A stretch of 64,000 bases of DNA from Eledone cirrhosa (taxonomy: Eukaryota), in NCBI GenBank assembly GCA_964016885.1, contig OZ024740.1, positions 121,892,001 through 121,956,000 of the forward strand, in the 5' to 3' direction. Positions 33,134 through 51,869 of this stretch are shown here, piece after piece. Position 1 is the first letter of the stretch. Each line of letters opens with the position of its first letter. A program made the translations under genes and the position numbers. The notes below the pieces were generated by a model. It ran no database searches, had not been told where the DNA came from, and saw nothing but the letters and a program-made list of their open reading frames with translations.

Positions 33134-34610
33134 TATATTATATTAAAAAATACTTCGGAAGAAAGTGCATCATTGCTCTAATGTCAATAAATGGCGACAT
33201 GTATGGATGGAAAAACAAAAAAATCCAAATTTTATAATGGATTTGAAAATATCAGACAGATTGGATTCAAACTGGAAATGTTGAGAAGGATATATTACCG
33301 GGAATCCTGAACTATAAATAAAATGTGTAGTTTCTTTATTTTTTATTTATATATATATATATATATATATATAAAACAAAGAAAATATACATATACACAC
33401 ACACACACACACACACACACATACATATATATATATATATATATATATATATATATATATATATATATATATATATATATATATATGTATATCAAGAGAG
33501 ACAGAGAGAGAGACATAGAAAGAGTGGGAGAGAATGAGAAAAGCAAATCTATATTTGTAAATTAGCAATATAGCTTCATATAATGGCAGTTTAGTATTAT
33601 ACGGACGTGAATGTGATACAAGTGTGTATGTATTTATGTTAATGCGAATAAGTACGTGCGTCTGTTCGTTTATGTCAGTGTGAATTTATGTGTATGTTAG
33701 AGTCAGTTCGCATGTATTTGTGTGTGTGTACCTTTCTTTATCACAAAAGAATTAAACATTTATTCTCAATAGTTTTGATAATTGATTCAATAGAGTGAAA
33801 TAACGGTTGTATTTTTTCCTATATTTCTTTCTAACGTCATTCAGATATTTATTATATTTTTATTGTGCTACGTTTATAAACAATATTGTCACGTCAAAAA
33901 GAAATAGGGAAACCGAAGATAAACCTTAAAAACAAAGTAGTCATAAATATGTAATAAACAAATCTCAACAGTATACGAAATAATATCTAGAAAACTGCAC
34001 GTAGAAACAGATATAAGAATCTCATAAAAACAATATATATATAATCAAAATAGGAAAATAATATGAAGAAAATCTAATAGACCATTGAAATACTTTTAAT
34101 TCTGACTATATATTTTTGTATGTGCTAAAATTTAAAGTAGTGAGCGGTTCACTTTTTCTGATATAGTTGATTTTTACGAGGATTTCACAAGGGAAACTAA
34201 ATATATGGAACATAACAACTTAAGAAATCTGCAAAATACAAAAATGATATTTTGTTATAAACTTGAAGCTTGATGATGAGAGAAATATAGAAATTGATGT
34301 TGCAGAAATGGATATTGATTAAATACTCATTTTAGTATGAAATAAATACCTTTGTATTTATGGTTATATATGCAGTAATTCTAGGCAATGTATATTGTGT
34401 ATCAAATATTTGTTTTAATGCTACAAAAGCATTATGATCTCGTAGAGAAGCAACATGGTAGGGAGAGAATAATGCATTATATACGTTTGTACTTATGTAT
34501 ATATATATATATATATATATATATATATATATATATATATATATATATATATATATATATATATATATATATATAATAATAATAATAATAATAATAATAA
34601 TAATAATAAT

Positions 34611-35491
34611 GATTTCTTTATTAACCACAAGGGTTTACATAAAGTAGACATTAAGGACAGTGCAGGACAATACAGGACGGTACAAATGGGCATTTCTGCG
34701 TGTAAAAAACAAAAACAGAGGATGTAACAAAACATAACAATGAAAAATTCTCTAATAGGGGTGAGACTTCGGAGGGACATTTGTGGAGATCTTATGTTAA
34801 TGGTCCGATAAAACACGGTGCTTAGGCGCCGATGCTACATTTTATTGGGGGGGGGGGGCTGACCCTGTACCCATCTTTCTTTACCATTCTCTTGGCTTTA
34901 TGTAATTCCTCCTGAGTTACCTGGATTGTTTCGCATTTTTTGGCTGCCTTCGCAAAATACACGATGTTATTCTCATTGTTTTTGTTGCTGTTGTTGTTAT
35001 TGTTATTTTTAGTTTGAGTTGTGGTGTGTGGTGGAGTCAGTGGTGTTCGGTGTGGAAGAGTCCATTTTGGGTGAATCTATTTCGTTGTCAGGAGATAATT
35101 TATTTTTACTTTTGTTTCTGTTGGCGCTGTGGTGGTGGTGGTGGTGGGAGTGGTGGCTTCAACACCTGCAGTCATTAGTGTTGGCGGGAAATGAATGTCT
35201 GCATGAGACAAATTTAAATTTTGCTACTGCTTATATGTTTAGTGTTGGCAAACGTAGTAATATTTACAATGGTGGTGCCGGTGTGAGGTGTTAGTTTGTG
35301 AGGAAGGTGTGACTGTGCGTCTTCCAATCTTTTTTAGTTTCCACTGTTTTTTAGTGTCCTTTTCCGAAAGCAAATTTGTCGATCTTATAAACAGTTACCA
35401 ACAAAACTTTCCATAAATTGCAATTTTAAACAAACGAAAACAACACACATTTGCGCAGCTCACGATGATACGATTTTCTACGTAGGTCACC
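34611..35491 (-). mobile_element. Internally deleted Tx1-type family B copy retaining both termini
   Basis: 34611-34789 matches the 3' UTR at 42101-42279; 34790-35491 matches the 5' end at 47390-48124; (AAT)12 and (AAT)18 flanks. Confidence 0.9.
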
Positions 35492-50914: not shown

Positions 50915-51869
50915 AATAACAACAATAATAATAATAATAATAATAATAGTAATAATAATAATAATAATAATAATAATAGATAGGGAAGAAGACGCACCTG
51001 TGGATAGAGTGTTATGGAATCGTTCCCGTACATGTTTTATTGTTAACATAGTCAAAACGATTGTGATATAACAATTCTTAGTACCAATGGTACATGAGGC
51101 ACCAGGCCTACTCTCAGGAAGTGAGAAATCATAATATCCTGTTAGAGCGCACAGATATTAAATGATGTATTATAAATGTTATATTCAGAAAGGAAAATGG
51201 TTATAAATGGAAGAAAACCTCCTCTGTCTACACTATATATAACAGCCAAATAACAGCAATTTCACCACTACCACAACCTAGATACACCACCTATCCCACC
51301 ACCCCGCTGTGTACACTAAATACAACAGCCAGATAACGGCAATTTCACCACTACCACCACCAATCCCCACATAATAATAATAATTACTATTATTGTATCT
51401 CAAGTTTGCTCAAAATGTTTAATTCAAATATTAAGGAAATATGTCAACATATTTTTTAAACATAGGCGACAAACCGTATATATATACCGATCAAACAAAC
51501 GCATACTAGCTACAGTTTATTCAACAGAACTCTGTAGCGACAACGCCATCACTACGGTCGCCGACGCCGCACTCCATCTTTGCTACCACTATCCCTTCGC
51601 CGCCGCCGACACTCCATCCTTGCTATCCCACTACGCTCTGTTAACTTAAGAAAGGGGAAGGCGGCGGTATCACTAGACAAGAGAGAGTCTAGCAAAATAT
51701 ATAAATAGACTGACTTAGAGATCCGGTCAATCGTCAACGATTATGGCACTGCTGGCTCCCCCCTGCCCCACCAACAATAGAATAATCCCCAGCACCACTA
51801 CCGACATAGCCAACAACAACAACAGGCAAAACAAATAGTATATTATATTATTAATAATAATATCATTAT

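Follow-up and report, generated by a model that had tools for sequence, protein, structure and literature searches.

Results

Organization of the locus

The window, that is, the whole 64-kb stretch of DNA analysed here (0 N bases), contains five retrotransposon copies joined solely by (AAT)n tracts. At the left border of this train, an (AT)38 repeat (34499-34574) adjoins (AAT)12 (34575-34610), which is situated at the tail (3') end of B-del, a copy of the Tx1-type family B on the minus strand (34611-35491) that carries an internal deletion. In B-del, about 700 bp from the 5' end are fused to about 180 bp from the 3' end, with blastn matches to B of 80% and 92%. The following tract, (AAT)18 (35492-35545), is head-to-head: it joins the 5' end of B-del to the truncated 5' end of Dong1, a Dong/R4-type copy of the RLE class on the plus strand (35546-36451). 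Dong1 and the Tx1-type element A then meet tail-to-tail at (AAT)19 (36452-36508). A, the family A copy of the train, occupies the minus strand from 36509 to 42049 (Pfam PF03372, PF00078 and PF13966), and (AAT)17 (42050-42100) separates its 5' end from the 3' end of B. The latter is a full-length, decayed family B copy on the minus strand (42101-48124), within which a SINE is nested (46090-46279, minus strand; 18-nt target duplication with an ATTA start). A second head-to-head tract, (AAT)22 (48125-48190), lies between the 5' end of B and the truncated 5' end of Dong2, the longer of the two 5'-truncated Dong copies (48191-50914, plus strand). The Dong2 tail, an imperfect (AAT)~21 (50915-50977), closes the train and is followed by unique DNA.

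The six (AAT)n tracts measure 36-66 bp and lie exactly where the first-pass annotation had placed them. Sequence reading and self-comparison bore out the order that it had described, B-del(-), Dong(+), A(-), B(-), Dong(+), as well as its claim that no unique DNA lies between the elements, since all ten element ends in the train touch a tract directly. In the window (AAT)5 was counted 79 times, against 0 in 100 shuffles.

Tx1-type families A and B

Element A retains remnants of ORF1 and an ORF2 with APE (39048-39875), RT and zinc knuckle, interrupted by a few stops and frameshifts. Relative to a second A copy, it lacks about 275 bp near the 3' end. Both A and B have ORF1 together with an ORF2 that carries an N-terminal APE, an RT and a C-terminal zinc knuckle, as is characteristic of the Tx1/L1 group. 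Among solved structures their RT is nearest to that of L1 (2.5e-27, versus 3.4e-18 for R2), and 9 of the 10 rows of endonuclease matches are L1 entries. A quick tree of 76 rows, built without L1 or named Tx1 rows, unites A, B and P0001 in a clade whose sister is an array-forming group (100% SH-aLRT), with U2-flanked (L010, L014) and 5S-flanked (L021) elements beside them. A and B likely belong to Tx1.

The relatives found in metagenomes (80 of 367 loci) are distant. Some adjoin U2 snRNA (L010, L014) or 5S rRNA (L021) genes, as expected of gene-targeting Tx1 families, and none has an (ATT)n/(AAT)n run of at least 5 units. Viral contigs yielded no relative, and the Atlas supplied no clade name.

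Eight of the 12 sequencing runs listed contain part of the window, the best share of its words being 0.46, and none clearly represents the same genome. Family B is multi-copy in all four runs examined (30, 30, 30 and 28 of 30 bins). Two loose ends were discarded: one at 44760 in run X10 (24,023 reads), likely a ligation artefact at an AATT site of a reduced-representation library, and an A-rich one at the SINE head, too weak at an agreement of 0.4. B and B-del begin at the identical base beside the tract. B-del retains both termini and has lost the coding middle; its joint was not among the 15 joints listed (there are 1,685 more), and it could represent either a non-autonomous family or a single deletion.

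A second small cluster on the minus strand (15720-17840) is composed of a further family A copy, A', followed by (ATT)4 and a SINE with an ATT tail. A' (15950-17833) is 5'-truncated, has an ATT tail in which the SINE lies, and shows the 5' flank TTTC-ATTATT. The hexamer ATTATT is found directly upstream at 352 of 94,786 background positions.

Dong/R4-type elements

Dong1 is reduced to the CCHC/RLE region and the 3' UTR, with one frameshift close to its end. The open frame of Dong2 (847 aa) contains RT, CCHC and PD..D, and one stop precedes the natural end. Dong2 is 66% identical to a 1158-aa protein, about 280 N-terminal residues of which are missing from it. Pfam assigns RVT_1 and a weak zf-RVT to Dong2 and finds no APE, and R2 is its best PDB match (1.6e-30) over L1 (1.3e-13). 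A single ORF in which CCHC and a PD..D restriction-like endonuclease come after the RT, with no APE, is the arrangement of Dong/R4, and sense-strand TAA repeats lie at both ends in 2/2 copies. The putative Dong/R4 label rests on this architecture and on the target; none of the 120 matches listed is a named relative.

The 5' truncation of each Dong copy falls precisely on the edge of a tract, and the region of a 5' HDV-like ribozyme is therefore absent. Rfam, run on 30000-64000, returned no ribozyme, solely repeat-driven matches below threshold. Folding of three Tx1 5' ends and of the 5' region of an older R4-type element gave z values between -1.2 and +1.1.

This older, heavily decayed R4-type element (about 51955-55890, plus strand) lies 1 kb to the right of the train. 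It shows about 36% amino acid identity to Dong2, a (TAA)4 tail ending at 55890 and no AAT tract at its apparent 5' end. Head-to-head with it, with no tract between, is a possible 110-bp Tx1-like 3' fragment (about 51850-51955, minus strand), which carries an ATT tail but lacks a tract on its 5' side. This fragment is a possible exception to the arrangement seen in the train.

Independence of the repeated units

The order B(-), tract, Dong(+), tract is found twice in the train. Dong1 and Dong2 differ chiefly at synonymous positions (23/134, pS 0.17), with fewer non-synonymous differences (28/545, pN 0.05; Fisher p 2e-5). As a control, A compared with A' gave a neutral pattern (pS 0.104, pN 0.097), so the test separates the two cases. 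Divergence along the repeated unit is also uneven, with 14.3% for the 5' part of B and B-del, 6.9% for their 3' part and 9.3% for Dong (p 0.008 and 0.002). The synonymous excess and the uneven divergence indicate that the copies come from different source elements. Judged by these sequence comparisons, the B-tract-Dong unit is not a local duplication, and its copies are independent insertions.

A SINE with the same 3' stem-loop

An abundant SINE of about 190 bp is found at 5459-5991, 7459-7865, 15749-15936, 32955-33139, 46090-46279, 60610-60800 and 63297-63686, among other places. The window holds 14 matches to it, 8 of them with an intact 3' end. Six of these 8 copies are flanked by target duplications of 8-18 nt, which start with ATTA in 4 of the 6; of the others, one has a 5-nt duplication and one has none. 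One copy in 8 lies inside an ATT tract. ARAGORN found no tRNA; the head of the SINE is presumably tRNA-like, judging by A- and B-box-like motifs. A contig of run X1 crosses the SINE site in B and is about 200 bp shorter there; the SINE thus entered B later.

Two SINE tandem dimers were observed (7459-7865 and 63297-63686), the second enclosing its own target duplication. Long (AGT)n tracts occupy 60801-60888 and 61529-61597, and a SINE head adjoins the first of them with no target duplication.

The motif CC(T)(T/C)GTG is common to the 3' ends of 4 Tx1-type, 8 SINE and 7 sister-lineage copies. Around it lies a stem of 4 bp, closed by a loop of the CU(U/C)GU type, in which 90.8% of cells are paired and 3 of the 4 pairs show two-sided changes. 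Covariation in the stem (0.41) beats all slid versions (at most 0.20). The stem, picked by eye from the same sequences and comprising 4 pairs only, beats 500 shuffles on 3 of 5 measures, the other 2 being not significant. Taken together, this is moderate evidence that the SINE may use the ORF2 of the Tx1-type lineage.

Head-to-tail arrays in the sister lineage

A relative of A with a 52% identical RT is present in 41 overlapping loci (L081-L119, L126 and L127) of one genome bin labelled as bacterial. These contigs are probably mis-binned DNA of the host animal. Protein clusters of this sister lineage have 385-732 members. Its intact elements are arranged head-to-tail with a period of about 6.4-6.85 kb, and 12 of their 3' ends lie on one 91-kb contig. 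Each array has a short, subfamily-specific spacer, with no poly(A) or microsatellite, and the arrays include 5'-truncated units directly after the spacer. None of the 50 sister-lineage 3' ends listed has an ATT run at its start. The flanks at array starts are unique DNA in 4/4 cases (L084, L088, L096, L112); other rows first scored as the start of an array were dropped, as most of them arose artefactually from internal matches of one probe. The lineage thus seems to re-insert habitually at one place, and its use of ATT seems not to be ancestral to all of its members.

Polarity and target preference

All three Tx1-type (APE) elements of the train lie on the minus strand with ATT tails, and both Dong/R4-type (RLE) elements lie on the plus strand with TAA tails. 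Polarity agrees in 7/7 elements when A' and the older R4-type copy ending at 55890 are added to the five of the train. The first-pass annotation had spoken of strict opposite polarity. This is true of what was seen (5/5 in the train, 2/2 outside it), on a thin sampling in which the five-member pattern has a chance of 1/16 by coin flip (2 of 32 patterns; hand arithmetic). The opposite polarity would arise because each family has a fixed tail unit and a fixed nick strand.

The tracts that start at 35492 and 48125 each join two 5' ends and thus are not 3' tails. These two head-to-head tracts require targeting, as tails alone are insufficient to produce them. In the train, each of the three Tx1-type 5' ends adjoins a tract of 17-22 units, while (ATT)4 lies directly upstream at 22 of 94,774 positions outside the train, a comparison that yields no p-value, as the locus was chosen because it is clustered. 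With A' included, the Tx1-type 5' junctions of the window comprise 3/3 at tracts in the train and one short match. For comparison, a Tx1 family is considered target-specific when more than 20% of its flanks are of one type (PMC4494074). Beyond the train, AAT runs are for the most part tails of elements.

The same annotation had also proposed that two unrelated endonuclease types share one microsatellite on opposite strands. The element ends at tracts and the head-to-head tracts speak for this part of the claim; strict specificity of the APE was overstated, given that 1 in 8 SINE copies lies in a tract and that the sister lineage makes no use of AAT. The sequences point to an ATT preference of the APE rather than to strict specificity, because of this single SINE copy in 8.

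Discussion

A model for the growth of the train

We consider it probable that the train grew by repeated target-primed insertion into (AAT)n tracts from both strands. The Dong/R4-type RLE would nick the ATT strand, and the resulting copy would read along AAT and end in TAA repeats, in line with what is known of Dong. For the Tx1-type APE, the nick would fall on the AAT strand, probably between the bases of a T^A step, and the freed ...TAAT-3' end could then pair with the AUU-repeat tail of the RNA, just past the small 3' stem-loop. Such pairing would explain why the Tx1-type copies are invariably oriented along ATT. What the APE prefers is probably a short site of the ATTA(T/A) type, which a tract would offer every three bases, so that a long tract would not be needed. 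The SINE target duplications fit cleavage of the AAT strand after TAAT, followed by pairing with the AUU tail. Every insertion would split one tract in two and add tail units, the target being thereby kept and multiplied. Anatomy, junctions, tail units, SINE target duplications, covariation in the stem and the separate origin of the Dong copies are borne out by the sequences, while the nick positions, the RNA-DNA pairing, the use of Tx1 machinery by the SINE and the insertion order are what we infer.

It is tempting to extend this model further, as a tentative proposal that we regard as possible rather than likely. An undescribed Tx1 lineage, formed by A, B and the partner SINE, might target (ATT)n genome-wide and, with Dong, build mixed, self-growing interstitial trains in which the tail of each clade becomes the new target of the other on the opposite strand. 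Such trains would be the interstitial equivalent, with RLE and APE partners, of TRAS/SART. By the same habit of re-insertion, the sister lineage would assemble pure arrays with at least ten intact elements.

Alternative explanations

The cluster could be an artefact if unrelated contigs had been joined through AAT tracts during assembly. A simple repeat stands at every junction, no read or contig was seen to span a junction (reads are cut at tract ends, with 0 records past the ends in 4/4 runs), and the best public runs contain at most 0.46 of the words of the window. Against a misassembly, the tracts, at 36-66 bp, are below ordinary read length, the 64 kb contain no N, the truncation points of the two Dong copies coincide exactly with tract edges, and the separate small cluster obeys the same strand rule. 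We therefore hold such an artefact to be very unlikely. Even less credit is due to a scenario in which a B-(AAT)-Dong unit was duplicated locally, deletions followed and A was inserted between the units: it would account for the repeated order and for the resemblance of the first unit to a shortened second one, but the mainly synonymous differences between the Dong copies and the uneven divergence along the unit make it scarcely tenable.

Two further explanations concern what the Tx1-type elements recognize. They could be true (ATT)n specialists like Kibi and Koshi, with nearly all copies in long tracts. The three 5' ends of the train at 17-22 units and the common start base of B and B-del would suit this, and Tx1 families for (TC)n, (TTC)n, (TTCC)n and (TTTC)n do exist (PMC4494074). 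However, the 5' junction of A' offers just the 6 nt ATTATT, 1 of 8 copies of the SINE with the common stem-loop lies in a tract, and the sister lineage uses no microsatellite, so strict specialization seems unlikely to us. Conversely, the Tx1-type elements might re-insert at the 3' end or at the target duplication of earlier elements, in which case only Dong would target the microsatellite and the AAT tracts would mostly be expanded tails. The pure head-to-tail arrays of the sister lineage, with 5'-truncated units after the spacer, are what such behaviour would produce; the element tails that make up most AAT runs outside the train, and the two SINE dimers, are also in keeping with it. Within the train, however, a Tx1-type element follows another head-to-tail at just 1 of 4 internal junctions (A 5' to B 3'). 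The tail of A meets that of Dong1 and the tail of B-del meets (AT)38; what these sites have in common is the tract and not the neighbour. We judge targeting of earlier elements to be improbable here, and retain target-primed insertion into the tracts as the preferred reading.

Comparison with known systems

Every principle invoked here has a precedent, and no new mechanism is proposed. Dong targets TAA in B. mori, A. gambiae and the snail Biomphalaria glabrata, according to the available text of two reports (PMC3812793, PMC3774820). The elements described here resemble it in their single ORF, RT, CCHC, PD..D endonuclease and sense-strand TAA at both ends, but the copies are 5'-truncated and their tract is common to APE elements too. 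In the Tx1 group, Kibi uses (TC)n, Koshi (TTC)n and crocodilian Tx1 families (TTCC)n or (TTTC)n (PMC4494074, in part). A and B share with them the two-ORF APE-RT-zinc-knuckle organization and the use of one repeat unit on a fixed strand. They differ in being flanked by (ATT)n, and not by the (TC)n or (TTC)n of Kibi and Koshi, in coming from an invertebrate, and in a specificity that looks relaxed.

Opposite insertion of two families into one repeat is known from TRAS and SART, which belong to the R1 clade. These enter the (TTAGG)n telomeric repeat in opposite directions, and their RNA ends, which resemble the repeat, may anneal to the target once it is nicked (PMC7265360). Both families carry an APE and the repeat is telomeric there, whereas RLE and APE elements meet on an interstitial microsatellite here; no telomere-type repeat array was found in the window. 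Convergence of unrelated endonuclease types on one target has been described for Utopia (RLE) and Keno (Tx1, APE), which insert at the same U2 snRNA site (PMC4640811, in part). In that case the target is a gene and the 3' flank is the same, while ours is a simple repeat used on opposite strands.

The idea of a regenerated target that serves as a landing pad, also put forward in the first-pass annotation, stands insofar as insertion would keep the target. As a general mechanism it is already in print: double insertion that keeps and duplicates the target gives tandem TEs (bioRxiv 10.1101/158386, in part), SINEU-3 is found in tandem around a target duplication (PMC4494074, in part), and TRAS/SART are a precedent for the polarity. 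The train resembles these tandems in that the target is kept and duplicated and elements pile up. Those are mostly dimers of the same family; the locus studied here combines three families of two clades plus a SINE.

Dong-R4 and L1-Tx1 are among the recently active families of Octopus vulgaris, with the target going unmentioned in the text available (PMC13282606). The presence of both in the window, its richness in AT and microsatellites and its plentiful SINE would suit an octopod source. In the available parts of the cephalopod and mollusc repeat papers, no L1-Tx1 target is given (PMC13282606, PMC8967140, PMC9115989, PMC4758252). A literature search found neither a Tx1 element targeting ATT/AAT nor a Dong-Tx1 train; Repbase, Dfam, Kojima and Fujiwara 2004 or the supplements of PMC4494074 may already list one. 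Thus, within the literature searched, the Tx1-type lineage that uses ATT, the SINE that is likely its partner, and the opposite-strand pairing of RLE and APE on an interstitial microsatellite appear to be undescribed.

Our results add (ATT)n as a probable new target to the Tx1 group, and offer a natural case of RLE and APE endonucleases acting, as we propose, on opposite strands of one microsatellite. Through the common 3' stem-loop, they also link an abundant SINE to the LINE that is likely its partner. If general, such trains would help to explain TE hotspots and the abundance of AAT in genomes rich in Dong-R4 and L1-Tx1. Comparison of the ATT-using endonucleases with those of the array-forming sister lineage would make a shift in APE target choice testable.

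Other elements in the window

To the right of the older R4-type element, a piece that looks RTE-like by eye (about 57600-58600, plus strand) ends near (GAT)n(AT)n, and tblastn detects the RT of another LINE remnant at 59244-59918 (minus strand). In the left part of the window, an inverted-repeat element (18456-19922) has arms of about 590 bp at 95% (18536-19127 and 19336-19922), and the region 20860-23302 contains a frame with DDE_3 (21314-22012) surrounded by inverted pieces. These last two are likely DNA transposons.
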